NCBI GenBank assembly: GCA_045652245.1
Contig: JAZRTY010000033.1
Span: 75,863-139,862 of the forward strand
Direction: 5' to 3'
Source of the DNA: Eubacteriales bacterium
GTDB taxonomy: Bacteria; Bacillota; Clostridia; Oscillospirales; CAG-382
DNA length: 64,000 nucleotides
The position numbers and the translations under genes are program-made. Positions 2,007 through 17,132 of this stretch are shown piece after piece; positions within the stretch are counted from its first letter, which is position 1, and each line of letters starts with the position of its first letter. Under the pieces are notes generated by a model. It was not told the origin of the DNA. It saw only the letters and a list, made by a program, of their open reading frames with translations, and ran no database searches.

Positions 2007-4943
2007 ATGCATGATTTCCTTGCCCAATTTGAACAATATTGTAAGAATCCAGAAGTTAATTCGAACAAGGCTAATGCATATTCGAAAGCTATTGAATATC
2101 TTTGTGCCTATATGCAAATTAGTGAGATAACTCCTCAGGCTGTTGATAGTATCAGAACTACAGAGGAATATATCAGTGATAAAAATAGTTCTTTTTACAA
2201 AGATTTGCTGGCTTTTTTGACAGAACGTAGGCAGAAATCTTATTTAGAGGGTGGCTTTGTTAGAGCAGCGCTAAAACCTTTTTTTGAGTTTGCCGGCAAA
2301 TGGACAAAGACAACGAAAGTGTATGAATGGGTAGAGTTTTATATGGAACTTGCAAACAAGTTGCTTACATATAAAAATGACAGAATAGCCTTGATTCAAA
2401 TCATCAAAGATATATTTATTAAGGCGAATCTCAAATTACCAACGCTCGAAAAGGATAATAACATCATAGATGTTGATCCTTTTACATTCTTTGCATTATT
2501 TAATAAGGGGATTAAGGATAGCAATCGCATTCTGTTATTGACAGTAATAAAAGATTTGTTAGAAATCTCTGCTGTTGTACCAGAAAAATTTGACGGAATC
2601 CCTGTTGTTAATCCGATGAAAGCTACGTTTTATTATTTTCTGGGCGAAAGAAACGATGAGGATATAGATAATTTATGGGAATTCTTTGAAGTTGCCCTAA
2701 AGTATGCTGACAATAAAATGGATAGTAGCAATCAATTTGTTGAGTTGTTTAATACTGTATCAAAACAAAAAGGAATAAGCTGGAATATTACAATGGGCTT
2801 GTATTGGTTTAGACCTTATACATATGTAAATCTTGATGCAAGAAACAGAAAATTATTAGAAAATAACAATAAAAGGTTCCTGCCAAAGGTGGATATTGTA
2901 AAGCTGTTGAAGAAAGTGCCGAGCGGTGAAGAATATCTGAACATCATTACATTAGTAAAAGAAGTTATGTCAGAGTATGCGAGTTTCCCTGAACTTTCAT
3001 ATGATGCTTGGAAACAATCAACAGAAGATAAAGTAAAGTTCTTCGGTGAAGAAGGAATTACATACTGGCCGTCATTGGAAGAATACGATCCGGGAATTAC
3101 AGTTGAAATGTGGAAAGAGATCTTATCTGACAAATCCCTTACTCCTGACGAAATGTTAGATATTCTGGCTAAAATGCTGGAAATCGGCGGAGAAAGCACA
3201 TGCTATCACATGGCGGAAGTTTATGGTAAAACTCACAATTACTATAATGCAATGGGTAGCAACTTCGGAAAGCGTGTAAAAGAACGATATAACATTCCAG
3301 ACTGTTATGATAGTGAATATGACAGAATGCGTTATTATACAATTCCGTTTGTTGGAAGAGATATTATAGAAGATAATAAAACACATTATTCTTGGAAACT
3401 CAGAGATGAGTTAAAGGAGGCTTTAGAAGGAATGGATTTAACTGTAAATATTGATGTTGCAAACAAGAAAGAATTTGATAAAAACATAATTCTTTACGGA
3501 CCTCCGGGAACCGGTAAAACATATAATACTGCTATATACGCCGTAGCGATTATAGAAAATAAATCATTAAAAGAAGTTTCTTCTGAAGATTATTTTGATG
3601 TACTTGAAAGGTATAATGAATATAAAAAAGCCGGAAAAATTGAATTCACAACTTTCCATCAATCATATGGATATGAAGAGTTTATTGAAGGAATAAAACC
3701 TGTTATAAACGATAAGAGTGAAGATAATAAGGAAGTAGTTTACGAGGTTGTTCCCGGTGTGTTCAAAGCTTTTTGCGATAAGATAGAACGACCAGGAATA
3801 AAGGGAACAGTGGATACAGAATTAAATGAATATCCTACAGTATGGAAAGTGTCTTTAGAAGGAACCGGCGATAATCCTACACGTAGAGAATGTTTAGATA
3901 ATGATCACATACGTGTTGGTTATGATGAGTGTGGCGAAGATGCTACGGAGGTTATAGAAAACCAAGAAATAGGATATTCAGTATTAAATAGATTTATCAA
4001 TGAAATGTCCGTAGGAGATGTAGTTATTTCGTGCTATACAGCATCTACCATCGATGCAATAGGCGTTGTGACGGGTGAGTATGAATGGCATGATGAATAT
4101 GAGTACTATAAACGATTAAGAAAAGTAAAGTGGTTAGTTAAAGGCATTAATGAGAACATAGTAAAAATAAACAACGGAAAGAAACTTTCTAATCCGACAG
4201 TACATCGCGTTAATATAACATTGAGTGATGTTATGGATATAGTAAAAAAATACTCCCCTGAGGTTATTGAAACAGAAAATAAAGGAAACTATGTTTTCAT
4301 CATTGACGAAATAAACAGAGGCAATATTTCGAAAATTTTAGGTGAGCTCATTACTCTGATTGAACCTACAAAGAGAAAAGGACAGCCTGAAGAGATGCAG
4401 GCAAAGTTGCCTTATTCTCAAAAAGAGTTTGGGGTTCCCGACAATGTTTATATCATTGGCACTATGAACACTGCAGACAGAAGTATTGCTGCCATCGATA
4501 CGGCACTTCGTCGCAGATTCAGTTTCAGAGAAATGCTGCCTCAGGCTGATGTATTAGATGGTATTGAAGTAGAGGGTCTTTCAGTTTCTGGAATGCTTAA
4601 AAAGATGAACAGACGTATTGAAGTTTTATACGACCGTGAGCATACAATCGGACATGCATATTTTATGCCACTTCAATATGACAACTCAATGGAATGTCTT
4701 GCTGATATTTTCAAAGATAAAATAATACCGCTTTTGCAGGAATATTTCTATGAAGATTACGAAAAAATTAGACTTGTTTTGGGAGATAATCAAAAGACAG
4801 AGGAATATCAGTTTATACTTAAAGAGCAAGTTGATGAAACTGAATTATTTGGCGAAGATACTGATGTTATTGAGGATGCATATAAGTACTCCGTAAATGA
4901 AGAGGCATTTACCGTTATAGATGCATATGAAAAAATGATTTGA
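2007..4943 (+). CDS. mcrB: McrB-family AAA+ GTPase, the motor subunit of a modification-dependent restriction system, with a long N-terminal region and an internal insertion
   Basis: RBS AAAGGGG upstream of the ATG. Walker A ILYGPPGTGKTY. FHQSYGYEEFIEG. McrB signature FIIDEINRGNISKILGELITLIEP. IIGTMNTADRS. ALRRRF. Confidence 0.85.
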   Translation: MHDFLAQFEQYCKNPEVNSNKANAYSKAIEYLCAYMQISEITPQAVDSIRTTEEYISDKNSSFYKDLLAFLTERRQKSYLEGGFVRAALKPFFEFAGKWTKTTKVYEWVEFYMELANKLLTYKNDRIALIQIIKDIFIKANLKLPTLEKDNNIIDVDPFTFFALFNKGIKDSNRILLLTVIKDLLEISAVVPEKFDGIPVVNPMKATFYYFLGERNDEDIDNLWEFFEVALKYADNKMDSSNQFVELFNTVSKQKGISWNITMGLYWFRPYTYVNLDARNRKLLENNNKRFLPKVDIVKLLKKVPSGEEYLNIITLVKEVMSEYASFPELSYDAWKQSTEDKVKFFGEEGITYWPSLEEYDPGITVEMWKEILSDKSLTPDEMLDILAKMLEIGGESTCYHMAEVYGKTHNYYNAMGSNFGKRVKERYNIPDCYDSEYDRMRYYTIPFVGRDIIEDNKTHYSWKLRDELKEALEGMDLTVNIDVANKKEFDKNIILYGPPGTGKTYNTAIYAVAIIENKSLKEVSSEDYFDVLERYNEYKKAGKIEFTTFHQSYGYEEFIEGIKPVINDKSEDNKEVVYEVVPGVFKAFCDKIERPGIKGTVDTELNEYPTVWKVSLEGTGDNPTRRECLDNDHIRVGYDECGEDATEVIENQEIGYSVLNRFINEMSVGDVVISCYTASTIDAIGVVTGEYEWHDEYEYYKRLRKVKWLVKGINENIVKINNGKKLSNPTVHRVNITLSDVMDIVKKYSPEVIETENKGNYVFIIDEINRGNISKILGELITLIEPTKRKGQPEEMQAKLPYSQKEFGVPDNVYIIGTMNTADRSIAAIDTALRRRFSFREMLPQADVLDGIEVEGLSVSGMLKKMNRRIEVLYDREHTIGHAYFMPLQYDNSMECLADIFKDKIIPLLQEYFYEDYEKIRLVLGDNQKTEEYQFILKEQVDETELFGEDTDVIEDAYKYSVNEEAFTVIDAYEKMI

Positions 4944-4963
4944 TGATTTGAGGAGGTGTTATC

Positions 4964-6277
4964 GTGGCAAAGACCATCACAGTGCGTGAATATGAATCTT
5001 TTACTTGCAATAAAAATGTTCCGGGACACATTTCTTTGCCTGAGAGCACTTTTAAGAATTTAGAAGAGTTTATACTTGCGAATAGCAGCCAAGATTCCGA
5101 AGTCTTGGAATTTATGGGAATTACAGCAAGAAAAGGAATAGGCAAAGTAATAACAGCAAAAAATTATGTGGGCGTTATTTCTATGAACGATGGTACAACA
5201 ATAGAAATTTTACCCAAAATATACTCAGAACAAGACAATATTGCCGAAGCAAAAAGACTTCTCATAAAAATGCTGAAGACATTGAGAACAGCTCCGTATA
5301 AAACAATGCAAAAGACAAATGTGAATATTGACAAACTGAGTATATTTGAGATCTTTATACGAATGTTTCTCGATGAAGTATTTATTATAGTAAAGCATGG
5401 TTTGAAGTGTAATTATGAGAGCATTCAAGATAATCTTAATGTGTTCAAAGGTAAAATGTTGTTTTCGAAACAGCTAAAATATAACGTCGTGCATAAAGAA
5501 AAGTTCTTCGTGGAGTATGACGAGTTCAATACAAATCGCGCTGAAAACAGGTTGTTAAAATCAACACTCTTGTATCTTTACAAGAAAACCACATCGAATA
5601 AGAATAAAAATGATATACGAACATTGTTAAATTCATTTGTTGATGTCAACGAATCAAAGAATTACGATGATGATTTTTCTAAGTGCATAGCAGATAGAAA
5701 TATGAAGGGTTATACAACTGCACTGTTATGGAGTAAGGTGTTCTTACAAGGCAAGAGTTTTACATCGTTTTCTGGTTCGAATGTTGCTTTTGCGCTGTTG
5801 TTCCCAATGGAAACATTGTTTGAAAGCTATGTTGCGTCGATTATGAGAAAACAACTTCAAGGTACAGATTATTCATTTTCTGCGCAGGACAAAGGATATC
5901 ATTTGTTTGATAGCCCTAAAAAATTTATGTTAAGACCTGATATTGTAATAAAACAGAAGATTAATAAAATGGTATTTGTTATGGATACAAAGTGGAAATT
6001 ATTATCGTTGTCAAAAGCAAATGCCGGAATATCTCAATCTGATATGTACCAGATGTACGCATATCAGAAAAAGTATGAGGCTAAAAATATTACTTTGTTA
6101 TATCCCAAAACCTCAGAGGATATTGATGAAGACAAGCTGACTTTTAAATCGGATGACGGCGTGATAGTTAATGTGAAATTTGTTGATTTGTATGATAAGA
6201 AATCTATCGCCGATATATTAAGTTCTGTGATTGAATGTAATGAAATTTCAAGAGAGGTTGATTCTGATGAATACTAA
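4964..6277 (+). CDS. mcrC: McrC-family PD-(D/E)xK nuclease subunit
   Basis: GTG start 8 nt after GGAGG and 20 nt after the mcrB stop. Nuclease motif RPDIVI...VMDTKWK. NRAENRLLK region typical of McrC. Sits directly downstream of mcrB. Confidence 0.8.
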   Translation: MAKTITVREYESFTCNKNVPGHISLPESTFKNLEEFILANSSQDSEVLEFMGITARKGIGKVITAKNYVGVISMNDGTTIEILPKIYSEQDNIAEAKRLLIKMLKTLRTAPYKTMQKTNVNIDKLSIFEIFIRMFLDEVFIIVKHGLKCNYESIQDNLNVFKGKMLFSKQLKYNVVHKEKFFVEYDEFNTNRAENRLLKSTLLYLYKKTTSNKNKNDIRTLLNSFVDVNESKNYDDDFSKCIADRNMKGYTTALLWSKVFLQGKSFTSFSGSNVAFALLFPMETLFESYVASIMRKQLQGTDYSFSAQDKGYHLFDSPKKFMLRPDIVIKQKINKMVFVMDTKWKLLSLSKANAGISQSDMYQMYAYQKKYEAKNITLLYPKTSEDIDEDKLTFKSDDGVIVNVKFVDLYDKKSIADILSSVIECNEISREVDSDEY

Positions 6278-7709
6278 AAACTATGTTGTTCCAAAACAAA
6301 TTATAGACGCTAAAGAGGAGAAATCTCTCATCACTTTAACAGATACATATAATAAAATGATAGAGCCAAGTATTGCCAGCAAGGCGTTAAGCAAGGTTGG
6401 TGATAAAATACCTCAACCTATAAAAGATTTTACAAATGCCGCAAAAGAAAAACTTACAGATAGTGAATTGATCATTAAATCTTTAGAATTGCTTGGAAAG
6501 TCCTTTCAAACATTAGAACAGTTTGCGGCAAAAGTTACTTTAAGCGAAAAAGATATAATAAAAATGGTTAACCCAATAGTTGTTGATAACGAAATAACAT
6601 CACTGGATGAAATTTGTTTGGCAAGGGGTTATGATATATCAAAGCTTGTTGGAAAAGCAAAATTTGTTGATATAATAGCAACTTTAATTGAAGGTGGCGT
6701 TACAGGATATGCCGGGTTCGTTGGTTTGCCGTTTAATTTAGTTGCGAGTACTTTTTTATTTTATAGAGCTGTTCAATCTACAGCGTTATTCTATGGCTAT
6801 GATATAAAGAACGATCCTGCTGAATTGCAAATAGCTTCTGAAGTATTTATGAATGCTATGAGCCCTAAAAACAATAATGATAGTGAATTGTCAAGTGCAA
6901 TAGCCAAAGTTATGTTGTTGACAACTACAACCTCTGTAAAGCAAACTGTGAAAAAAGGATGGACAGCGATGGCTGAAAAAGGCGGCGTACATCTTTTAAT
7001 AACACAGATGAGAGCACTTGCTAATAGCGCAGCGAAAAAGGCGTTAGAAAAAGCTGGCAAGAAAGGCCTCGAGAAAACTGTTTTTTCAGAAGTTTTTGAA
7101 CAATTAGGAAAGAAATTAACACAAAAATCAATTGGAAAGGCTATTCCTAAGATAGGTGCATTCATTGGTGCAACGATCGATACAGCCCAGATGGTCCAGA
7201 TTTTGAAGTATGCTGACGTTTTTTATAATAAGCGATTCTTGCTCGAAAAAGAAAGCCGAATTGATTTATTATGCGCGCAACCTTCAACAATTACTACCGA
7301 AGAGTATGACATAGTTGATAATGATGATTTTGTTTATAATGTGAAAGCTAATAATGATATGATCGAATTTATTTGTTACCCTAAATGTACTACTTGTCAG
7401 AAGGCGAAAAAGTGGCTTGATGACAACAAAATCGAATATGAACTTCGTGATATAAAGGAAGATAATCCAAGTCTTGAGGAATTGACCGCTTGGTATAAGA
7501 TGAGTGGACTGCCACTTAAGAAATTCTTTAACACTTCCGGGCTTTTGTATAAGTCTATGGAGCTTAAGGACAAGCTACCTACTATGTCTGATGAAGAACA
7601 GTTAAAACTCCTTGCAACAGATGGAATGCTTGTAAAACGTCCACTTGTAGTTGGCAAAGACTTTGTTTTGGTTGGATTTAAAGAAAGCGAATGGAATGAG
7701 AAACTGTAA
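6267..7709 (+). CDS. Fusion protein: EcsC-like N-terminal domain plus C-terminal ArsC/Spx-family thioredoxin-fold (CxxC) domain
   Basis: The ATG at 6267 is preceded by AGAGAGG and overlaps the mcrC stop by 11 nt. GLPFNLVASTFLFYRAVQSTALFYGYD resembles EcsC. The C-terminus IEFICYPKCTTCQKAKKWLDDNKIEYELRDI...LVKRPLVV matches the ArsC/Spx/YffB family. Confidence 0.55.
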   Translation: MNTKNYVVPKQIIDAKEEKSLITLTDTYNKMIEPSIASKALSKVGDKIPQPIKDFTNAAKEKLTDSELIIKSLELLGKSFQTLEQFAAKVTLSEKDIIKMVNPIVVDNEITSLDEICLARGYDISKLVGKAKFVDIIATLIEGGVTGYAGFVGLPFNLVASTFLFYRAVQSTALFYGYDIKNDPAELQIASEVFMNAMSPKNNNDSELSSAIAKVMLLTTTTSVKQTVKKGWTAMAEKGGVHLLITQMRALANSAAKKALEKAGKKGLEKTVFSEVFEQLGKKLTQKSIGKAIPKIGAFIGATIDTAQMVQILKYADVFYNKRFLLEKESRIDLLCAQPSTITTEEYDIVDNDDFVYNVKANNDMIEFICYPKCTTCQKAKKWLDDNKIEYELRDIKEDNPSLEELTAWYKMSGLPLKKFFNTSGLLYKSMELKDKLPTMSDEEQLKLLATDGMLVKRPLVVGKDFVLVGFKESEWNEKL

Positions 7710-7720
7710 GAGGTAATTCT

Positions 7721-8491
7721 ATGCGATATTATGTAACGGCGGATGTGCATGGATATTTTAGTGAATTGAAATCTGCATTAGCTGAAAAAGGATTTTTTGA
7801 AGATAAAGAGCCTCATAAATTGATTATATGCGGAGATATTTATGACAGAGGTACCGAGGCATTACAACTACAAAATTTCATACTTGATTTGATGTCAAAG
7901 GATGAAATTATTCTTATACGAGGAAATCACGAAGATTTAGCATTAGATCTTTTAAACAACTGGGATAAAAGTAGCTTTTTGCAACGCTATCATTATTCTA
8001 ATGGCGCCTTAGATACTGTCTGTCAGCTTACAGAAACAAGTATTGGACAACTGTCAGTCGATTCAGATGAGGTTTATAGGAGATTTTCCAAGAATCCATT
8101 TATACAAGAAATTATCCCTGCGATGGTTGACTTTTATGAAACTGAACATTACATATTTACGCATGGCTGGATTCCTTGCGATATTATAGGCAATAGTCAT
8201 TCTAAAAGATATATTCCTATTGAGGATTGGCGCAATGCAGGCGTTCGGGCTTGGGATAATGCAAGATGGACGAATGGTATGGAGGCAGCTCATAGCGAAA
8301 TCATAGAAAACGGAAAGACTATTGTGTGCGGACATTGGCATTGCTCCTTTGGACATGCTCACTACGAGGGTGATGGTGGCGAGTTTGACAACAATCCTAA
8401 CTTCACCCCATATTACGGTAAAGGAATTATTGCTCTCGACGCATGTACACCGGTTTCAAAAATGGTTAATTGTATTGTAATTGAAGATTAA
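7721..8491 (+). CDS. Calcineurin-like metallophosphoesterase (PrpE/ApaH-type Ser/Thr phosphatase family)
   Basis: Motifs DVHG, GDIYDRG, RGNHE and GHWH appear in the canonical order. The gap to the upstream gene is 11 nt. Confidence 0.8.
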   Translation: MRYYVTADVHGYFSELKSALAEKGFFEDKEPHKLIICGDIYDRGTEALQLQNFILDLMSKDEIILIRGNHEDLALDLLNNWDKSSFLQRYHYSNGALDTVCQLTETSIGQLSVDSDEVYRRFSKNPFIQEIIPAMVDFYETEHYIFTHGWIPCDIIGNSHSKRYIPIEDWRNAGVRAWDNARWTNGMEAAHSEIIENGKTIVCGHWHCSFGHAHYEGDGGEFDNNPNFTPYYGKGIIALDACTPVSKMVNCIVIED

Positions 8492-8514
8492 AATGTAGAA
8501 TGGAGTGAGAAGTT

Positions 8515-9075
8515 ATGAGAAAGAATTTAGGAGCGAAAGCGATTTTATATCCAATGCCGGTGCTTATTATCGGTACGTATGACGAAAACGGAAAAGCAAA
8601 TGCAATGAACGCTGCCTGGGGTGGCATCAGCGAGGAAACACAGATATCTATTTGCGTGGACGACGGACATAAGACTGCAAAGAATGTTGTTAAAACCAGT
8701 GCATTTACCGTAAGTATTGCAGATGCAGATAATGTTATTGCTTGTGACTATGTTGGCATTGTTTCAGGCAACAAAGAACCTGATAAAATAGAAAAAGCAG
8801 GTTGGCACGTTACAAATAGCGAGTTTGTAAATGCTCCACTTTTTGATGAATTGCCTATGGCACTTGAGTGCAAGCTCATCAGCTATGACGAAGAAACCTG
8901 CAGACTTGTTGGTGAAATTGTAAATGTCTGCGCGGACGAAAGAATCCTTGACGAAAACGACAAGATTGATTTGAATAAATTCAGTCCTATTACATACGAT
9001 CCAGTGCACCATACTTATCGTAAAATTGGTGAGAATGTTGGCAAGGCGTTTAGTGATGGAAAGGAAATGAGATAG
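8515..9075 (+). CDS. Flavin reductase-like / flavoredoxin (FMN-binding split-barrel) protein
   Basis: LYPMPVLIIGTYDENGKANAMNAAWGG and overall length are typical of the family. RBS GGAGTGAG. Confidence 0.75.
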   Translation: MRKNLGAKAILYPMPVLIIGTYDENGKANAMNAAWGGISEETQISICVDDGHKTAKNVVKTSAFTVSIADADNVIACDYVGIVSGNKEPDKIEKAGWHVTNSEFVNAPLFDELPMALECKLISYDEETCRLVGEIVNVCADERILDENDKIDLNKFSPITYDPVHHTYRKIGENVGKAFSDGKEMR

Positions 9076-9099
9076 ATTTAATATAGGAGTAGATTATTA

Positions 9100-10350
9100 A
9101 TGTCAAAAAATAATTCAAATTTTTTTAAAGAAAAAAATGACTGGTCTTTTATTAAAGATAAACTTTTGGGTTGTTATTTGCCTCCTTATTTTCAAAAAGT
9201 TCTAATGACAAAGAAACCTATATTCTATGTAGATTGCTTTGCTGGTAAAGGAAAATTTGAAGATGGTAACGACGGTTCACCTCTAATTGCATTAAGAGTT
9301 AGAGAGGATTGCTTGAATAGGGCTAATGTTTTTCAGAAATTTGGTGCAATACAACCTTGCTTTATTGAGTTAAATCATGCTGCAGAATTGCAGAAAAACA
9401 TTAGCACGTTCGCTTCCAATTACGGAAACGCTAATGTTATATCAGGCAAATATGAAGAAACAATTTTAGACTGTCTTTCTAATAAGGACAAATATAATAT
9501 TTTTCTATACATAGATCCATATGGAATAAAAGCATTAAATTTTGAGTTGTTTAAAAAATTTAAAACATTAGGATTTAATACATTCGAAATGTTAATTAAT
9601 TTTAATTCATTTGGTTTTTTTCGTGATGCTTGCAGAGTTATGAGTGTCAATTATAGTAATGATGAAGCATTGAATTCATTGGATGATTTGGTTGAATATG
9701 AACCCACTACTTTTGACACAAACTCACAATCAGAAACACTTTTAAATTCAATTGCTGGCGGAGACTATTGGAAAGATATTGTGAAAGATTATAATAACGG
9801 TAAATTTGATGGATATAAGGCAGAACAGATATTATCCGAAAGATATAAACAGCAACTAAAAAAGCATTATTCGTATGTACTTGATTTGCCTATTCGCTTG
9901 AAAGCAGGGCAAAGACCTAAATATCGAATGATACATGCTTGTGATCACAAAGATGGATGCTTTCTAATGGCCCAAAATATGCAAAAGAGAAAAGATGAGT
10001 TGTTTTTAAATATTCAGCAAGGTGGACAACTTACACTTTTTGACATGATGACAGGATGTTCTTCCACGGCAGAAGGAGATTTTATAACAATAGAAGAAAT
10101 TACCCAAAAAGTCGGACAACTTCTTGACAATTATCACGAAATAGGATTGACTGAATACATAGCAGCTTTCGTAAATGAGTATGGCTTAATATGTGATTTT
10201 AAAATGATATACGACAGTTTAAATAGTTTAGCACAGAAAAATGAGATAAAGATTTTACGGAATCCAGCATATACAAAAAACGGAAAGCAATCTACATTTT
10301 GGGAAGAAAGCAAAGACAAAACTGTAACATTAAGGAGGTGTAAATTGTGA
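9100..10350 (+). CDS. tcmP: TcmP-like protein (three-Cys-motif partner protein) with a Rossmann/SAM-methyltransferase-like core
   Basis: The N-terminus FFKEKNDWSFIKDKLLGCYLPPYFQKVL...YVDCFAGKGKFEDGNDGSPLIAL is as I recall for NCBIfam TIGR04474. FAGxG (motif I-like) and FLYIDPYG (DPPY-like) parallel the RsmD in this window (LFSGCG / FLDPPY). The stop overlaps the next start (GTGA). Confidence 0.6.
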   Translation: MSKNNSNFFKEKNDWSFIKDKLLGCYLPPYFQKVLMTKKPIFYVDCFAGKGKFEDGNDGSPLIALRVREDCLNRANVFQKFGAIQPCFIELNHAAELQKNISTFASNYGNANVISGKYEETILDCLSNKDKYNIFLYIDPYGIKALNFELFKKFKTLGFNTFEMLINFNSFGFFRDACRVMSVNYSNDEALNSLDDLVEYEPTTFDTNSQSETLLNSIAGGDYWKDIVKDYNNGKFDGYKAEQILSERYKQQLKKHYSYVLDLPIRLKAGQRPKYRMIHACDHKDGCFLMAQNMQKRKDELFLNIQQGGQLTLFDMMTGCSSTAEGDFITIEEITQKVGQLLDNYHEIGLTEYIAAFVNEYGLICDFKMIYDSLNSLAQKNEIKILRNPAYTKNGKQSTFWEESKDKTVTLRRCKL

Positions 10351-11135
10351 AACAAGTTAAAGGATATATAAAGCGAAAATCCATGCTTTATGTAACTGGC
10401 GTGGAATATGGTGATTATACAATGAATCATGTGTTTGGATGCGCACATGGTTGTAAATATCCTTGTTATGCATATTTGCAAAAAAAACGTTTTGGACAAG
10501 TCGATGGCTATGATAAGTGGACGGAACCATATTTAGTTTCAAATACATTAGAATTATTAGATAAAGAAATTCCTAAGCTGAAAAGCAAAATCAAGTCAGT
10601 GCATTTATGTTTTACAACAGATCCATTTATGTATGGATATGATGACATCTCAGAAATAAGTATCTCGGCAATTAAAAAGATTAATGAGTTTGGCATAAAA
10701 TGTACGGTTTTAACTAAAGGGATTTTACCTAAAGAATTGGCACAATTATCTTCAGAAAACGAGTATGGAATAACTTTGGTTTCATTGAATGAGAATTTTA
10801 GAAGAGAGTATGAGCCTAATTCAGCAACGTTTGATGAAAGAATTCGCGCTTTAAGAGCTTTGCATGAATTGGGGTGCAAGACTTGGGTGAGTATAGAACC
10901 ATATCCTACACCAAATTTTATAGAGCAAAATATTAACGATATCCTTGAGTCTGTCAGTTTTTGTGATAAAATAATTTTTGGAAGAATCCATTACAATAAA
11001 AAAGCTTCGGAATATAAAAATCATAAAGAGTTTTTTAACAAAACAGCTAAGGCGGTTATTGATTTCTGTGAAGAAAGCAATATAGCATATCATATAAAAA
11101 ATGGCACTATAACCGAAGTTAAAACTGAGGAGTAA
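10347..11135 (+). CDS. Three-Cys-motif radical-SAM-like protein (COG1533/SplB-like scaffold) with atypical CX3CX3C spacing
   Basis: GTG start 9 nt after AAGGAGG, overlapping the tcmP stop. GCAHGCKYPCYA is at residues 31-42. TTDPFMY and EPNSATFDERIRALRALHELGCKTWVSIEPYP are arranged as in SPL-like radical SAM enzymes. Confidence 0.6.
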   Translation: MKQVKGYIKRKSMLYVTGVEYGDYTMNHVFGCAHGCKYPCYAYLQKKRFGQVDGYDKWTEPYLVSNTLELLDKEIPKLKSKIKSVHLCFTTDPFMYGYDDISEISISAIKKINEFGIKCTVLTKGILPKELAQLSSENEYGITLVSLNENFRREYEPNSATFDERIRALRALHELGCKTWVSIEPYPTPNFIEQNINDILESVSFCDKIIFGRIHYNKKASEYKNHKEFFNKTAKAVIDFCEESNIAYHIKNGTITEVKTEE

Positions 11136-11138
11136 ATA

Positions 11139-12401
11139 ATGATTAGTCCTAGAATTGTAAAATGTAATTTCTGTAATACAACTATACTTATGAGATTTCA
11201 AATGGGATATTTCGATATCCCGTTTGATTTTGTGTGTCCTAATTGTGGTGTTCATATTAATGGGTTTCAAAACACTGTTCAAAACCAAGATATAGAAATA
11301 CACAATGCAAGTATAATAGAAACAAAAGAACCTGTAGCTGATTATTATTTAAATTTATCAGTAGAATTGCCAAGCAGGAAGATTAGTAAGTACACATCTT
11401 ACGACGATATAATACGAGAGGGGTTCAGCCCGTTTTTGATGACAAGCCAACTATACGGTGATAACTACGAATCAATCACAAGAAGTATTAGCCTTTTCTT
11501 GAATTTAAAAAGAGAATTTTGGCCGAAAATCACACCGTTATATGATTTGTTTTTTAATAAACAAATTGAGTTAATGAAGCCTCAATTACAAATATATTCA
11601 AAAGCATATAATATCATCAATGAACTAGATGCAAGAATGTCATTGCACCAACTACTAGTTAAAATGTTTTTTAAAATTTTGCCTCCAGATTCTTTAAATG
11701 AATTTATTGATACAAGTAAAAAAATTAATGAGAGAAAAACATTGATAAAAGTAATAGAGTTAATTCATAGAATTGGTGGAGAAGAATTTTTTAATAAAAA
11801 TACAAAACGAATTGTCAAAATATTCAACAGATGGATTGATAATTTTGAAAAGTTTGCTCCGATTGTTATGCTTTCATTAGGAAATGCAAAAAATAAAATT
11901 GATAAAAATACATTTGGAATTTCAACAACTAGTCTGGATGAATTCTTGAGCTTTTATTCCGATAGTTATGAAATAATCGCAGATTTAATAGATTTAGTAG
12001 TTGCTTTAAACAACATTTCGATTCGCGGGAATATAGATACTTTTCCTTCCGATTCTACAGTAAAAAACTTTGAAAATTATCAAAAAGCTTCAAAGGCTAA
12101 CAAATTAAAATGTATTGTTGATGGCGAACCTTATAGTAGACCATTAAATTTGGAAAAAGATATTAGAAATGCAATTGCTCATTATGATTATGAATTTGAT
12201 TCTATTACACAAGAGATTCTTTTCAGAGATAATTTTAACGGGAAGCAAAAGGAAATAAAGGTATATCTTGTGGATTTTGCTTGTTTGTGCTATGACAACA
12301 TTGTTGCTCTTTTTTATTTGAATGAAATTATGTATTTATTGCATAAAATTGCTTATATCACAAAGGGATTGAAACCAAATGTAGATCCACGCTTGTTTTG
12401 A
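11139..12401 (+). CDS. Zinc-ribbon protein with a C-terminal HEPN-like (RNxxxH) motif; putative RNase effector
   Basis: Starts 3 nt after the upstream stop, with a GAGGAG RBS. N-terminal CNFC...CPNC four-Cys ribbon. DIRNAIAHYDYEF (R343..H348, nt 12165-12182) fits the HEPN Rx4-6H / Abi_2-type RNxxAH motif. Confidence 0.5.
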   Translation: MISPRIVKCNFCNTTILMRFQMGYFDIPFDFVCPNCGVHINGFQNTVQNQDIEIHNASIIETKEPVADYYLNLSVELPSRKISKYTSYDDIIREGFSPFLMTSQLYGDNYESITRSISLFLNLKREFWPKITPLYDLFFNKQIELMKPQLQIYSKAYNIINELDARMSLHQLLVKMFFKILPPDSLNEFIDTSKKINERKTLIKVIELIHRIGGEEFFNKNTKRIVKIFNRWIDNFEKFAPIVMLSLGNAKNKIDKNTFGISTTSLDEFLSFYSDSYEIIADLIDLVVALNNISIRGNIDTFPSDSTVKNFENYQKASKANKLKCIVDGEPYSRPLNLEKDIRNAIAHYDYEFDSITQEILFRDNFNGKQKEIKVYLVDFACLCYDNIVALFYLNEIMYLLHKIAYITKGLKPNVDPRLF

Positions 12402-12466
12402 GTGCATTTGTTTCATAGATGTGTTTTCGAGTCAAATCGGTATGACAACTTGTGTAAATTTTGAAA

Positions 12467-12495
12467 ATTGTACAATAATTGTACTGAATTTGTAC
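12467..12495 (+). repeat. Three phased direct repeats (A/T)TTGTAC spaced exactly 11 bp apart; candidate operator
   Basis: ATTGTAC at 12467, ATTGTAC at 12478, TTTGTAC at 12489. Followed by two copies of TTGACTATG (12506, 12520). Confidence 0.5.
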
Positions 12496-12505
12496 TATAA
12501 TTGAA

Positions 12506-12534
12506 TTGACTATGATAATTTGACTATGTATAAT
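12506..12534 (+). promoter_or_regulatory. Near-consensus sigma-A promoter
   Basis: TTGACT (12506-12511), 17-nt spacer, TATAAT (12529-12534). Confidence 0.55.
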
Positions 12535-12561
12535 ATAAAATGTAAAGAGAATATGAAAACG

Positions 12562-12589
12562 GCGGCGAGCGAAAGCTTGTCGCTTTTTT
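12562..12589 (+). terminator. Intrinsic terminator (9-bp stem, GAAA loop, T6)
   Basis: GCGGCGAGC-GAAA-GCTTGTCGC followed by TTTTTT. Two G.U pairs make it plus-strand specific. Confidence 0.7.
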
Positions 12590-12598
12590 CTTCTAAAG

Positions 12599-12622
12599 AT
12601 CGGCTTATGCCGGTCTTTTTTT
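12599..12622 (+). terminator. Second tandem intrinsic terminator
   Basis: ATCGGC-TTAT-GCCGGT followed by CTTTTTTT. Confidence 0.55.
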
Positions 12623-12680
12623 ATGCTTAAAATCAGAAGAAACTTATAAATGTCGTATTTTGTCGTACGATTTTTAAAGG

Positions 12681-13410
12681 AATTTTCAGAAAAAGGCTTC
12701 AAAAATTACCGTTTTTTCTGGTGATATATGAGAGGGTGTTTTATTAGCTGTTATTTAAATGGCGATTAGTGTCGAACGATTTTTTAAGAATTTTTCAAAA
12801 AAGGGTTGAAAAATGGCTGTTTTTTATCCTTACTTATGAGGGGTGTTCTTATAAAAGAATTTTTCAAATGTAAAGGTTTCTTTGACGTTTGACTGTTATT
12901 ATGTGCTTACATATAAAAGACTTTTAATTTTTTGAAACTATTTTTTCAATGGTAAAGGTTTTCTATACCATTGACTGATATAATCATCTTAAACAGAAAA
13001 GGATGCCAAAATAATATCAAATTATTTTTTCAAAGGGGTCAAAAAATGAACCCTTTGGCTGCTAAGATAAAGTCGCAAAAGAAAAAAATATAAATTTTTT
13101 TCAAAGGTATAAGTTTTTGTTACCTTTGGCTGTTATTATCACCGTATAAAAAGATTTTTTCTGAAAGGTACGGCGTGAAGCAACCTTTCACTGTTATTAT
13201 AAGTTTGAGCAGAAAAATAATGTCGAAAAGTTTTTTCAAGATTTTTTTGAAACATACGGTAAGCTGCATAGTTTCACTGTTATGATGATGTTAGAAAAAA
13301 TTAAAAATCTTTTTGAAACTACCAATAATTTGGGTGGTTTGGCTGCTATGATAGTAGCAGGAAGACAGATTTTTAAAAAATTTTGTTCAAAACTTAAGGT
13401 TTGGATGTCA
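12681..13410 (+). repeat. Array of about 9-10 degenerate direct repeat units (spacing 61-107 bp). Each unit is a T-tract, a hairpin with covarying stem, then CTGYTATNAT.
   Basis: Hairpin stems: 12687-96/12709-20, 12797-803/12817-23, 12865-71/12885-91, 12947-54/12966-73, 13031-37/13051-57, 13102-09/13121-28, 13162-69/13183-90, 13248-53/13271-76, 13316-23/13333-40. Units 1 and 2 (12661-12746 and 12769-12853) are longer and clearly homologous copies. Confidence 0.7.
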
Positions 13411-13733
13411 GATATGATTTAATAAAAGTACAGACAGAAAAATTTCTTGTTTGGTAAGGTTTTGACATCAAAAATGTTAAGCTTAAATTATGAAATGCAT
13501 TTCAATTGTACCTTGAAAAAGAAAGCACGCAAGATAACGGCGTTGCAGTATAACAAAAAATCGGAAACAGATAATGATACTTCTGTCCAGCCACAGTCCG
13601 AGCGTTAAGAGCGTCGCAGGCAATGGGGACAGTCCGGGCGGATGCCGGGAAGGTGGAATTCCTATGGATGTGTTGATTTCACATCTCCGTATTTTAAAAT
13701 TAAAAATGAAAAATTTTAAGGAGAAATTAAATT

Positions 13734-14129
13734 ATGAAAAAAGCTATTATTTATTTAAGAAATGAAAACAAATTTAAAATGTTCAACAATGAAGTTGAAA
13801 GAGAATTAAGAGACTTTATTGCCACACTTCCGAATGTAAAAGTAACAGATGTGTATGTTGATGTATATGACGATGATGAAAATGAGATGAATCGTGACAT
13901 TGTTTCTAAGATTTTTCGTTCTGCTAAGAATGGAGATTTTCAAATTATTCTGACTAACGACATATCCGGCCTTATGCACAATCGTCTTACTCCATGGTGT
14001 GTTGTGGACGAGCTTAATAAGCTCAGAATAAACATTATATCCAAAGCCAGCACACTTCTCGAAAAAGAAAAGCACATAAGATTAATAATGCAGCAAATGG
14101 ATAAATGGTATGCTGAAGAAATCAGCTGA
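13734..14129 (+). CDS. Small resolvase-domain-like protein lacking the catalytic serine
   Basis: RBS AAGGAGA. KKAIIYLRNENKF aligns with the serine-recombinase N-terminus (compare VAIYCRLSEEDRD in the neighbouring gene), but Ser is replaced by Asn. DFQIILTNDISGL matches the D..lv...DR region with DR lost. Confidence 0.5.
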   Translation: MKKAIIYLRNENKFKMFNNEVERELRDFIATLPNVKVTDVYVDVYDDDENEMNRDIVSKIFRSAKNGDFQIILTNDISGLMHNRLTPWCVVDELNKLRINIISKASTLLEKEKHIRLIMQQMDKWYAEEIS

Positions 14130-14215
14130 ATAATTGTAAAGTAAACTGTAATAACGGACCTGCCCTTGTTCATATTACTGTAATAGCATAATCCACTTAA
14201 AGGAGGCTGACAGTT

Positions 14216-14353
14216 ATGGACAAAAAGAAAACCCAGAAAGACTATGTAAAAAATGTTTATAAAAGCGGCGATTGTCTTGATAAGCGTCAGTTCTCCGAAA
14301 AGTGGATACAACTGATTAACAGACTGGAAAATTCCAAGTCTGTAAAAAAATAG
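14216..14353 (+). CDS. Small basic protein of 45 aa, not in the ORF track; hypothetical
   Basis: AAGGAGG at 14199-14205, then ATG at 14216. Sequence MDKKKTQKDYVKNVYKSGDCLDKRQFSEKWIQLINRLENSKSVKK, stop at 14351-14353. Confidence 0.4.
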   Translation: MDKKKTQKDYVKNVYKSGDCLDKRQFSEKWIQLINRLENSKSVKK

Positions 14354-14421
14354 ACAAGGCGATACGCTATGCGATATAATAAATCCGCAGCGGTTTGTTC
14401 TGTCCAAAAGGAGAGAAAGCG

Positions 14422-15978
14422 ATGGACAAAGTAGCAATTTATTGCCGCTTATCTGAAGAAGACAGAGACAAACTAAACAAAACAGACGATTCTGAAAGTA
14501 TAAAGAATCAAAAATCAATGCTATTGAAGTATGCGATGCAACAAGGGTGGGAAGTTTATAACATTTACAGCGACGACGATTATGCCGGTGCAGATCGAAA
14601 GAGACCTGAATTCAATCGGTTGCTTCATGATGCCGAGGAAGGAAAATTCGATATTGTGCTTTGTAAAACTCAGTCGCGATTTACACGTGAGCTTGAGCTT
14701 GTTGAAAAGTACATACACGGATTGTTTCCGCTTTGGGGAATCAGATTTATCGGGCTTGTTGATAACGCTGATACTGACAACAAAGGTAATAAAAAGGCAA
14801 GGCAGATAAACGGTCTCGTTAATGAGTGGTATCTTGAGGACATGTCTGACAGTATCAAAAGCTCACTTACAATCAGACGACAGAATGGTCAGCACATCGG
14901 TTCCTTTGCACTCTATGGATATATGAAAGATCCAAATCAGAAAGGGCATCTGATTATCGATGAAGAAGCTGCAGAGGTTGTTCGTAAGGTGTTTACATTG
15001 TTTTCGCAGGGAATGGGTAAAACCGCCATAGCAAGGTGGCTTAATGAGAAAGGAATACCTAATCCTACAGAATACAAACATCTGAAAGGTCTCAGGTACA
15101 AACAACCGGAATCAAAAAACAGTACTCTTTGGAGATACTTTGCTATTTCCGATATGTTGGTGAATGAAATTTATATCGGTAATATGGTTCAGGGCAAATA
15201 TGGTAGTGAATCTTACAAAACAAAAGAAAACAAACCACGGCCTAAAGACCAATGGTACAAAGTCGATGGGACACACGAACCGATTATAGACCGTGATCTA
15301 TGGGACAGAGTGCAGAATATGATAAAAAATCGTACAAAGCCCTTTACTACGGGGAATATAGGTATTTTCGCCGGCAAAGTGCATTGCGAGAATTGCGGTT
15401 ACACGATGCGTTCTTCAAAAAGTCGTGGTGAACATTATCTGCAATGTGCTACCAAGCACGTGGCAAATGGCGCTTGTGATGGAGCTTTTATTCCGGTAAA
15501 GAAGCTTGAAAGCATTGTAATTGATGAGCTGAATCGTATGACGAGAGAATTTCTTGATAAGGATGAGCTCGAACAGAAAATTGAGTTTGCCAAGAATCTT
15601 ACTGAGCAAAAGAAAAAGCTTGAATCCGAGGTCGAGAGGTACAGAAAGCTTGTCGACAGTACTTCGCGTGCTGTTAAGGAATGTTATCTTGATAAGGTCA
15701 AGGGCGACATTGATATTGATGAATACAATTCAATTGTCAGAGAGCTGAAAACAGATAAGGCAAAGTATGAGAAAGTCATAACTGACGGAGAGAATCAGAT
15801 AGCAGAAATTGACGAGCGCCTTGCAGCCGGAGATAACCGTCGTGAACTGATTGAGCAGTACACCAATATCACAGAACTTGACCGTGAAACTGTTGACACT
15901 ATGATTGACAAAATCGTTGTCGGCAGACGCATCAAAGGAACTAAAAATTATCCGGTTGAAATCCATTGGAACTTCTGA
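14422..15978 (+). CDS. Large serine recombinase (resolvase domain, recombinase domain, zinc ribbon and coiled coil)
   Basis: The ATG at 14422 follows AAGGAGAG. VAIYCRLSEEDRD holds the catalytic Ser. IVLCKTQSRFTRE. CENCGYTMRS...LQC zinc ribbon. Long coiled-coil C-terminus. Confidence 0.9.
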   Translation: MDKVAIYCRLSEEDRDKLNKTDDSESIKNQKSMLLKYAMQQGWEVYNIYSDDDYAGADRKRPEFNRLLHDAEEGKFDIVLCKTQSRFTRELELVEKYIHGLFPLWGIRFIGLVDNADTDNKGNKKARQINGLVNEWYLEDMSDSIKSSLTIRRQNGQHIGSFALYGYMKDPNQKGHLIIDEEAAEVVRKVFTLFSQGMGKTAIARWLNEKGIPNPTEYKHLKGLRYKQPESKNSTLWRYFAISDMLVNEIYIGNMVQGKYGSESYKTKENKPRPKDQWYKVDGTHEPIIDRDLWDRVQNMIKNRTKPFTTGNIGIFAGKVHCENCGYTMRSSKSRGEHYLQCATKHVANGACDGAFIPVKKLESIVIDELNRMTREFLDKDELEQKIEFAKNLTEQKKKLESEVERYRKLVDSTSRAVKECYLDKVKGDIDIDEYNSIVRELKTDKAKYEKVITDGENQIAEIDERLAAGDNRRELIEQYTNITELDRETVDTMIDKIVVGRRIKGTKNYPVEIHWNF

Positions 15979-16116: not shown

Positions 16117-16539
16117 TTATGAGATTGTAGCATCTGCTGCAAGGTCCTCATTAAGATCAGTAAGCAGGTCGCCCTTTATTCCAACATATTTCATATCAAA
16201 CGGTACACCCGAAGCTGCAACGGGGTAAAGGCCTGTTGTATGGTCAACAAAATAAGTTGCAAATGGCGTACCGGAAATTTGCTCAGGAGAAAGATTCCTT
16301 GTCAATTGATGAATAATAGCTGCAATTATTTCAAGATGTGCAAGCTCTTCTGTACCTATATCAGTTAAAATACCTGTAATTTTGTTATACGGGCAGCTAT
16401 ATCTCTGATGAAGATATCTCATTGAAGCAGCAAGTTCGCCGTCAGGACCACCAAGCTGACTGATTATAATTTGTGCTGTGTTTTGGTTAGGATTTTTAAT
16501 TTTTACAGGATACTGTAATTTCTTCTCATAAGTCCACAT
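16117..16539 (-). CDS. cotJC: Spore coat protein CotJC (Mn-catalase family), 3'-truncated at 140 aa, apparently split by the element
   Basis: MWTYEKKLQYPVKI...GELAASMRYL...DIGTEELAHLE. Ends ...NEDLAAD-ATIS*, where the paralogue at 56799 continues with QRAKVVYEYL...REEAH. Confidence 0.8.
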   Translation of the reverse strand: MWTYEKKLQYPVKIKNPNQNTAQIIISQLGGPDGELAASMRYLHQRYSCPYNKITGILTDIGTEELAHLEIIAAIIHQLTRNLSPEQISGTPFATYFVDHTTGLYPVAASGVPFDMKYVGIKGDLLTDLNEDLAADATIS

Positions 16540-16554
16540 AATCTCTCACCTCGT

Positions 16555-16869
16555 TTACGCTTCAATTTGCCAAGGCCAAGGACCATTTGTCCAAAGCCAG
16601 GTGTCTTTAGAATGATTTGAAAAATTAGTCATTGGACCACATTCTTCATTGATAATTTCACGCAGGTGATTTCTTTCTTCCAATAAAGTATGATAATATT
16701 CAAGAGCCTGATTACACTCCGGATATGCGTCGAGATAAAGCACTATATCATCCAGGGCAAATTCCAACTGTTGGAGTCGAAGCTTCATTCTACTACAGCT
16801 TGTGTTGTTTCTTGAATTATTGTTAGTACCATAACTTCTACAACTGTTCGCTTTACAATTGTTTATCAT
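16555..16869 (-). CDS. cotJB: Spore coat protein CotJB
   Basis: LQQLEFALDDIVLYLDAYPECNQALEYYH...GPWPW. The ATG at 16869 follows GGGAGG and overlaps the cotJA stop (TAATG). Confidence 0.8.
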   Translation of the reverse strand: MINNCKANSCRSYGTNNNSRNNTSCSRMKLRLQQLEFALDDIVLYLDAYPECNQALEYYHTLLEERNHLREIINEECGPMTNFSNHSKDTWLWTNGPWPWQIEA

Positions 16870-17132
16870 TACACTCTGCCTCCCGTCATTCCGCCACAAG
16901 TAAAGGGCAGGTCAAGCTCACCGAAAATTGTACCCCGTACCAGAGCCTTATCAATTTCATATATGCTTACAAATTCTTGTATAGGAGCATATACATTTGC
17001 TAACGGGTATCCTTCAAGACCTAAACTGTAACGGTTATCGGAGCCTGCGTTCATTCTATTATTATCAGCGTTATTACTACACTTTCCGCAAGAGGAAGCA
17101 AGGTTTTCGTATTTGTTATTACTACAATTCAT
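16869..17132 (-). CDS. cotJA: Spore coat-associated protein CotJA
   Basis: YPLANVYAPIQEF...ALVRGTIFGELDLPF. The ATG at 17132 follows GAGAGGAA. First gene of the cotJ operon. Confidence 0.7.
   Translation of the reverse strand: MNCSNNKYENLASSCGKCSNNADNNRMNAGSDNRYSLGLEGYPLANVYAPIQEFVSIYEIDKALVRGTIFGELDLPFTCGGMTGGRV

Follow-up and report, generated by a model that had tools for sequence, protein, structure and literature searches.

The window analysed here, a 64,000-nt stretch of contig JAZRTY010000033.1 from an Eubacteriales bacterium, carries at 9100-12401 three co-directional genes on the + strand, which an earlier note on this DNA had proposed to form a single modification or immunity system. 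Gene 1 (9100-10350, 416 aa) encodes a protein of the TcmP family, gene 2 (10347-11135, 262 aa, GTG start) a radical S-adenosylmethionine (SAM) protein, and gene 3 (11139-12401, 420 aa) a zinc-ribbon protein. The three open reading frames (ORFs), their tight junctions and the motifs named in the note were all confirmed, and since genes 1, 2 and 3 each have many conserved homologues, none of them is a chance ORF. Comparisons with other loci showed that genes 1 and 2 are a widely recurring pair, and that relatives of gene 3 mostly lack synteny with that pair, so that the three-gene assignment is revised here to two genes plus one.

The junction of genes 1 and 2 is a GTGA overlap of start and stop codons, and a strong Shine-Dalgarno sequence, AAGGAGGTG, is located 8 nt to the 5' side of the GTG. 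Only 3 nt separate the stop codon of gene 2 from the ATG of gene 3, and a GAGGAG Shine-Dalgarno sequence spans that stop codon. Two terminator-like hairpins at 12561-12618 (+ strand) end the co-directional array; they are present only to the 3' side of gene 3, and no such hairpin was seen between genes 1 and 2 or between genes 2 and 3.

The TcmP/radical-SAM pair

Gene 1 scored 108.8 bits against the NCBIfam model for TcmP, TIGR04474 (cutoff 53), with residues 14-296 aligned to positions 1-261 of the 263-position profile. Its AlphaFold2 model (mean predicted local distance difference test, pLDDT, 84) has a class-I methyltransferase fold, which bears out the methyltransferase-like core that had been read from the motifs FAGKG (residues 47-51) and IDPYG (residues 138-142). 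In the model, an RlmJ-like methyltransferase-fold domain occupies approximately residues 1-300 and is followed, at approximately residues 320-416, by a C-terminal alpha/beta domain with its secondary-structure elements in the order helix-strand-helix-helix-strand-strand, a predicted pattern that looks winged-helix-like. Nearly all Foldseek matches of this model in the PDB were SAM methyltransferases or relatives of that fold, with probabilities up to 1.00, and the best superposition was with RlmJ (6qe5; target-normalised TM-score, TMt, 0.60; root-mean-square deviation 4.6 Å).

Eight residues, K19, D45, G49, G51, S60, D139, P140 and G142, are invariant in bacterial (including actinobacterial) and archaeal TcmPs. 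Motif I of the methyltransferases (D-x-x-x-G-x-G) is present among these as D45, G49 and G51, and the acidic residue expected at the end of strand 2 is E90 (in FIELN) in the window protein and mostly E or D in its relatives. Motif IV reads D139-P140-x-G142, where x is Y, T, C or F, and so departs from the (D/N)PP(Y/F/W) consensus. When actinobacterial and archaeal members were added to the TcmP profile, hhalign comparison with RlmJ gave E=2.6e-5 (probability 75%, 78 columns), as against E=0.011, over motif I only, for a narrow profile. The wider alignment, which bridges a helical insert in RlmJ, pairs K19 of TcmP with K18 of RlmJ, motif I with motif I (YVDCFAGKGKF with YLDTHAGAGRY) and the GSP loops with each other (GSPLIAL with GSPLIA); at motif IV, TcmP has YIDPYG and RlmJ has LIDPPY. 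TcmPs of the window type fall into more than 1500 protein clusters. Sequence searches of the PDB with genes 1, 2 or 3, or with their profiles, returned nothing at E<=1.

Gene 2 is a radical-SAM protein by its match to PF04055 (55.3 bits, gathering threshold 29.5, residues 26-201), and it aligns to the SPL/COG1533 families across residues 23-203. Matches to two COG1533-type equivalog families were weak, with scores far beneath their cutoffs (PA0069 family, NF033668, E=6.7e-14, 51.6 bits, cutoff 360; Rv2578c family, NF038135, E=4.1e-10, 39.2 bits, cutoff 430); judged by these scores, gene 2 is a relative and not a member of either family. The match to DUF5131 (PF07505; E=0.0015, 18.6 bits) also lies below the gathering threshold, which is 28.9. 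The altered cysteine motif that the earlier note had pointed out, C32-x3-C36-x3-C40, is invariant in 63 distinct homologues, as are C88 and C241. In sequence it is GCAHGCKYPCY, a CX3CX3C arrangement that is one residue longer than the canonical CX3CX2C.

We examined the surroundings of TcmP genes in 93 loci on metagenome and viral contigs, in which TcmP is 41-67% identical to that of the window. The radical-SAM gene was directly downstream of the TcmP gene in 82 of the 82 loci with room for it (one with a gap of about 900 nt), and in 15 TcmP loci the partner gene was identified by tblastn and was intact. A small gene for an XRE-type helix-turn-helix (HTH) protein precedes the pair in 54 of 106 Firmicute loci, and the genes to the 3' side of the Firmicute pair are often those of restriction-modification systems: type III Mod/Res, Dcm with a SacI-like enzyme, or HsdMS. 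By analogy, the HTH-first, two-gene layout resembles that of controller-methylase-nuclease restriction-modification cassettes.

Such pairs occur in Firmicutes, Actinobacteria and Archaea, with either DUF5131 proteins or canonical radical-SAM proteins as partners. Their carriers are phages, plasmids and integrative elements, on which they have restriction-modification and other defence genes as neighbours. Gordonia phage Fairfaxidum (locus L138, 4602-6894; loci outside the window carry L numbers) encodes a TcmP relative, gp43, with 21% identity to the window TcmP and a methyltransferase annotation. Its gene begins 3 nt after that of the immunity repressor, gp44, is convergent with that of the DUF5131 protein gp42 and has an integrase gene nearby; from this position beside the repressor and near the integrase, gp43 is probably expressed in lysogens. 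The cysteine motif of gp42 is CX6CX2C, and BLASTP comparison with gene 2 found similarity only around that motif (E=0.095). On Streptomyces plasmids, tcmP is convergent with the gene for a Gp37/Gp68 protein, and on a Haloarcula plasmid the radical-SAM gene, with a canonical CX3CX2C motif (GCRHGCKFCY), is directly upstream of tcmP. TcmP and its partner are, as the earlier note had it, a named pairing with no assigned function: in the full-text literature we found no functional study of TcmP/three-Cys/DUF5131 or of the PADLOC candidates PDC-M41 and PDC-M30, only incidental listings.

There was one additional observation on the Firmicute loci. In L057 (7661-9876) and some 25 similar loci from gut metagenomes, type III Mod/Res genes follow the TcmP pair and are themselves followed by a gene for a protein of about 740 aa, which has an HEPN-like R-N-N-W-A-H motif near its N-terminus and, by visual inspection of the sequence, SNF2-type helicase motifs.

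Gene 3 and its association with the pair

Gene 3 encodes a four-Cys, beta-rich N-terminal domain followed by a large helical body. The ribbon and the R-x4-H motif that had been noticed in it are strictly conserved: 32 of 32 relatives have C9, C12, C33, C36, R343, N344 and H348, and in a set of 56 relatives with identities down to 21% the sole invariant residues are these seven and N292. Relatives at 40-83% identity form 109 clusters, and a profile search of 1.84 billion representatives identified 784 relatives at E<=1e-3, nearly all of them full-length proteins of about 420-490 aa. The protein also matches phrog_13366 over its full length. One relative, P0086, appeared to be a fusion with the C-terminal half of a C5 DNA methylase; we set it aside, as it is represented by one cluster and is probably an artefact of gene calling or truncation.

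The spacing of R343 and H348 conforms to the R-x4-6-H catalytic motif of HEPN RNases, and the assignment to HEPN proposed in the earlier note was followed up with profiles. The model PF18736 (pEK499_p136 HEPN) matched 16 of 32 close relatives of gene 3 at E<=1, over about 40 residues and in every case below threshold; relatives that were scanned individually scored 16.5-21.9 bits against a gathering threshold of 26.6. It did not match any of ten distant members. Distant members carry an extra C-terminal SEC-C motif. By hhalign, gene 3 showed local similarity to the pEK499 HEPN family nuclease (E=0.002-0.006), limited to the helix that contains the motif and the strand after it. Widening of the profile did not improve this alignment, unlike the TcmP/RlmJ case; a diverse template profile could not be assembled for pEK499_p136, because its plasmid homologues are all at least 74% identical. 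A weak match to PADLOC CARF_HEPN was also obtained, and the structural model (pLDDT 90) is helical around the R-N-x3-H motif. The HEPN label thus keeps the support of an invariant motif and of sub-threshold profile matches, and does not have that of fold comparison, as described below. On these sequence features we regard gene 3 as likely to be an HEPN-type RNase.

The association of gene 3 with the pair was assessed from both sides. No relative of gene 3 was found near TcmP in any of the 93 TcmP loci. Conversely, in 27 loci that contain relatives of gene 3 (22 genome loci, at 40-52% identity, and L001-L005), no TcmP or radical-SAM gene was found within 10 kb, and neither a flavin reductase nor an ArsC gene, both of which occur upstream of gene 1 in the window, was found within that radius. 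Restriction-modification systems of types I, IIS, III and IV stand beside gene-3 relatives, and the neighbouring genes include type III Mod/Res, type I HsdM/S, an AlwI system, GmrSD, Gabija, Pycsar, an OLD-family nuclease/ATPase, an RNase T-BRCT gene and a TatD DNase, and no partner was common to all of these neighbourhoods. In at least four other islands, the gene-3 relative is directly upstream of a DNA methyltransferase gene.

The three genes were found together in one clade only, consisting of the window, L006-L010 and L144, in which the radical-SAM proteins share 71% identity or more with that of the window. For L006-L009 and L010, identities to the window are 87-90% for TcmP, 84-90% for the radical-SAM protein and 78-81% for gene 3. 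In L144, the radical-SAM protein and gene 3 are each 71% identical to their window counterparts; the protein encoded upstream of them (L144, 3-905) is a very distant TcmP-like protein, with 17 bits against the TcmP profile and the motif VVLYVDPYDFG, so that the TcmP partner has been exchanged, or has diverged greatly, while genes 2 and 3 stayed together. A neighbour-joining tree of the partner proteins places the loci with all three genes in one clade, and L012, which does not have gene 3, also falls within it. The TcmP pair of L011 is 83% identical to that of the window and is likewise without gene 3; the DNA of L011 matches the window at 8774-11112, and the match ends 23 nt before the stop codon of the radical-SAM gene. 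Co-occurrence of the three genes in divergent relatives was therefore not observed, and the earlier note's claim, which was to stand or fall with the synteny of gene 3 and the pair elsewhere, mostly fails on its own terms; the boundaries between the pair and gene 3 in these loci are those of separate modules.

The mobile element and its cargo slot

The earlier note had placed the genes in a defence island, and their setting is indeed a defence or cargo island beside McrBC. From the left edge of the island, the order to the 5' side of gene 1 is a STAND NTPase gene, McrB, McrC, an EcsC-ArsC ORF, a metallophosphoesterase gene and a flavin-reductase-like gene. The STAND-type NTPase (75-1871; nSTAND_NTPase5, 38.8 bits) has a C-terminal S1 RNA-binding domain and a weak, sub-threshold match to TPR. 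McrB, which is long (978 aa), and McrC are encoded at 2007-6277, and McrC matches PF10117 with 304.9 bits. An EcsC-like ORF (6231-7709), whose EcsC part matches PADLOC PDC-S29 at E=8e-12, reads without a stop into an ArsC/Spx-like thioredoxin-fold domain at 7359-7709 (+ strand; TIGR01617, 97.4 bits). In L006-L010 and L135-L137, ArsC is a separate gene of 116 aa, starting at the ATG equivalent to position 7359. The metallophosphoesterase gene (7721-8491) is, relative to these same loci, an insertion between ArsC and the flavin-reductase-like gene. The latter (8515-9075, + strand; PF01613, 53.4 bits) has more than 8000 homologues, among them more than 100 clusters at identities of at least 80%; it forms a recurrent pair of its own with ArsC, which in L135-L137 is present without TcmP.

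To the 3' side of gene 3 are an ORF-free stretch of 1.3 kb, an ORF of 131 aa and a large serine recombinase gene (14395-15978, + strand; Pfam Resolvase, Recombinase, Zn_ribbon_recom and DUF4368), beyond which lie, on the opposite strand, chromosomal cotJC, cotJB, a cytidylate-kinase-like gene and others. These flanks, recombinase and then chromosomal genes, show that the segment belongs to the cargo of an element that has integrated into the genome of a spore-forming Firmicute. Comparison with L136 and L137, in which the first 101 aa of the recombinase are 100% identical to those in the window, delimits the cargo. Both match the window at ArsC (7359-7699), at the flavin reductase (8498-9107) and then at 12423-14698, where blastn identity between the window and L136 is 77-91%; between these matches they carry two genes of unknown type, ASCH, Ham1 and SIR2_2. 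With the same flanks enclosing other genes, 9100-12401 fills a variable cargo slot of a serine-recombinase element, with the flavin-reductase-like gene as its left conserved flank and the segment 12423-15978 (+ strand), which comprises the ORF-free repeat region, a pemK RNA motif, the 131-aa ORF and the recombinase gene, as its right conserved flank.

The right flank has two features of its own. Five direct repeats of about 45 nt are located at 12858-13286, each with an internal inverted repeat and ending in ...CTGTTATTAT, at spacings of 61-155 nt. These repeats, which lie in the ORF-free stretch, itself 77-91% conserved in L136 (same recombinase, other cargo), could be protein-binding sites or iterons. 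The pemK RNA motif (Rfam RF02913; 13571-13667, + strand; 58.4 bits, gathering score 34.8) is just upstream of the 131-aa ORF (13734-14129) and the recombinase gene.

The window island abuts the cotJ genes (16117-16899), and an island in L001 abuts cotJC, cotJB and cotJA in like manner (L001, 14065-14863), the two CotJC proteins being 68% identical. The L001 island contains a 47%-identical relative of gene 3, type III restriction-modification genes and Gabija genes. The neighbourhood of the cotJ operon may be an integration or defence hotspot that the two genomes share.

Interpretation and comparison with known systems

Our reading of these results is that two independent modules, the pair and gene 3, have come to occupy one variable cargo slot in a serine-recombinase element, and we consider this probable, short of confident. 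We infer that the pair acts on nucleic acid because its characterised relatives act on DNA (SPL, phage M6 gp53) or on rRNA (RlmJ). The working hypothesis for the pair, a frequent passenger of phages, plasmids and integrative elements, is now that of an RlmJ-like SAM-binding protein and an SPL-like enzyme that share a nucleic acid as their target, and joint modification of a DNA or RNA base by TcmP and the radical-SAM enzyme seems to us a fair prospect that falls somewhat short of an even chance. TcmP would bind nucleic acid, most likely DNA, and present or methylate a flipped base; its translationally coupled partner would carry out a 5'-deoxyadenosyl-radical step at the same site. The product would be a non-canonical mark by which DNA of the element and the host could be told apart from incoming DNA, and the mark might work in the manner of a restriction-modification system or as a protective modification. 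Such a use in defence is consistent with the XRE-type HTH gene upstream of the pair, with the repressor gene beside Fairfaxidum gp43 and with weak matches to PADLOC candidates. Gene 3 would be a toxic or abortive-infection effector in its own right, as in those islands in which its relatives stand beside unrelated systems; its sequence makes an RNase-type effector that acts alone, tethered through its metal ribbon, the most likely role. A fuller version, in which a base-flipping RlmJ-type scaffold delivers its base to the SPL-like CX3CX3C enzyme within a two-enzyme marking or immunity system, and gene 3 is a recruited PrrC-like guard, we would call a long shot. Should the pair indeed install a new DNA mark or carry out a radical-based restriction, it would represent new chemistry in bacterial immunity or epigenetics. 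Gene 3, for its part, represents a large unannotated family (784 representative clusters, eight invariant residues) with a confidently predicted fold that has gone unmatched.

Several of our observations weigh against parts of this reading. In their clade the three genes stayed adjacent while they diverged together (identities of radical-SAM protein and gene 3 of 90 and 81%, 84 and 78%, and 71 and 71%), and they are spaced only 3-37 nt apart with no terminator between them, so that a lineage-specific functional coupling of gene 3 to the pair is possible. A DNA substrate is suggested solely by analogy with distant relatives. No Pfam model reached threshold on the window TcmP, so that no RlmJ-family profile matched it; scans of 20 TcmP sequences at E<=10 likewise gave no meaningful match and no methyltransferase or RlmJ-family profile. 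The D-P-x-G form of motif IV, with its variable third position in place of (D/N)PP(Y/F/W), indicates that methyl transfer itself may have been lost. As for gene 3, the window protein reached no Pfam threshold and was not matched by PF18736, and the best Foldseek hits of the whole-chain model in the PDB and BFVD had E values no lower than 0.4, which leaves the HEPN fold without structural support.

Of the alternatives, the one that fares best is that all three genes do constitute one system in this clade, with the pair as a restriction-modification-like or sensing module and gene 3 as effector or PrrC-like guard, which the pair would keep silent until it is itself inhibited or detects an infection. 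The trio has been kept in four contexts with different flanks (the window, the L006 type, L010 and L144), the radical-SAM tree groups the loci with gene 3 in one clade, and the junction of genes 2 and 3 is tight, with the Shine-Dalgarno sequence over the stop codon and terminators only after gene 3. The placement of gene-3 relatives upstream of methyltransferase genes in the four or more islands noted above is also what would be expected of HEPN guards linked to restriction-modification (PMC3710099). Yet outside the clade the genes did not co-occur in any of the 93 or the 27 loci, L011 and L012 lie inside it without gene 3, and relatives of gene 3 stand as well beside Gabija, Pycsar and OLD-family genes, with no partner in common; the L144 TcmP-like protein, moreover, is very distant where genes 2 and 3 are equally well conserved. 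On balance we think it unlikely that the trio is one system.

A use of the pair outside immunity is less probable still, to the point of being doubtful. It would then be a DNA repair module of mobile elements, with an SPL-like lesion lyase and a lesion-recognition partner, or a pair that modifies rRNA or tRNA in the way of RlmJ, and gene 3 would be an unrelated toxin. Such a use is favoured by the nearest characterised relatives, SPL/COG1533 being a lyase of DNA repair and RlmJ a methyltransferase of rRNA, and by the conservation of both pair proteins, which is unusually high for defence genes (mean column identity for TcmP, 72%). However, a housekeeping context was seen in none of the 106 loci, the pair consistently travels on mobile DNA (phages, plasmids, integrative elements) in the company of restriction-modification and other defence genes, an XRE regulator or a prophage repressor is often beside it, and the PADLOC candidate models match it. 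The remaining proposal, a five-gene operon in which the ArsC-like protein and flavin reductase feed electrons to the iron-sulfur cluster of the radical-SAM enzyme, with TcmP and the HEPN protein as its other members, can claim that radical-SAM enzymes require a reductant, that the block is conserved in L006-L010 with overlapping or closely spaced genes and that L011 retains a 3' remnant of about 300 bp of the flavin reductase gene upstream of TcmP, but we judge it very improbable and reject these two proteins as dedicated reductants, since the other 93 TcmP loci have no flavin reductase and only one of them has ArsC, 7 kb away, the ArsC-flavin reductase pair recurs independently of TcmP in the same element family, and in the window itself the metallophosphoesterase gene is inserted between the two.

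We return to the preferred reading, of a pair and a separate gene 3, to compare its components with known systems. Gene 3 is like the pEK499_p136 HEPN proteins (PF18736) and PrrC-type RNases in its R-N-x3-H motif, in local similarity and in the restriction-modification neighbours of its relatives, and unlike them in its length of 420 aa and in an architecture for which neither the PDB nor BFVD gave a structural match. Restriction-modification genes are described as frequent associates of the pEK499_p136 HEPN family (PMC3710099), and gene 3 would fit that description while falling short of the family threshold.

The gene 2 protein shares its radical-SAM core with the SPL/COG1533 proteins (PA0069, Rv2578c) and phage M6 gp53. 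Characterised enzymes of the SPL type have DNA as their substrate: SPL repairs it, and M6 gp53 takes part in the hypermodification of thymidine (PMC8989533). The SPL cluster motif is CMGHCHYC (PMC8989533), to which the GCAHGCKYPCY of gene 2 adds one residue, and gene 2 differs further in its scores far under the equivalog cutoffs and in its shorter length of 262 aa. RlmJ, the Escherichia coli 23S rRNA m6A2030 methyltransferase, gives the best superpositions with TcmP (TMt 0.52-0.60) and has its motifs in the same order. However, RlmJ has an inserted helical subdomain that TcmP does not, and DPPY where TcmP has D-P-x-G; TcmP, in turn, has an extra C-terminal domain of about 100 residues, and is found on mobile elements, always paired with a radical-SAM gene.

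Among PADLOC candidates, both proteins of the pair match components of PDC-M41 (PDC-M41A, E=2.1e-6; PDC-M41B, E=8.6e-5), and TcmP also matches PDC-M30A. These matches are partial and weak, with E values between 1e-13 and 9e-5, and an HEPN gene is part of neither candidate. The closest likeness is to the TcmP/three-Cys-motif pair itself (TIGR04474 with PF07505 DUF5131, the phage Gp37/Gp68 protein): gene 1 is above the TcmP cutoff, the adjoining partner has three invariant cysteines near its N-terminus, and the known examples, Fairfaxidum gp43/gp42 and those of Streptomyces plasmids, are also borne by mobile elements. The window partner differs in that it scores as PF04055 and below the DUF5131 threshold, and in its CX3CX3C motif, in place of which Fairfaxidum gp42 has CX6CX2C and the Haloarcula partner CX3CX2C; the two genes are co-directional and overlapping in the window, whereas they are convergent in the actinobacterial examples. 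The window pair is thus a further copy of the catalogued TcmP/three-Cys pairing, with a partner of the Firmicute type that is characterised by CX3CX3C and PF04055.

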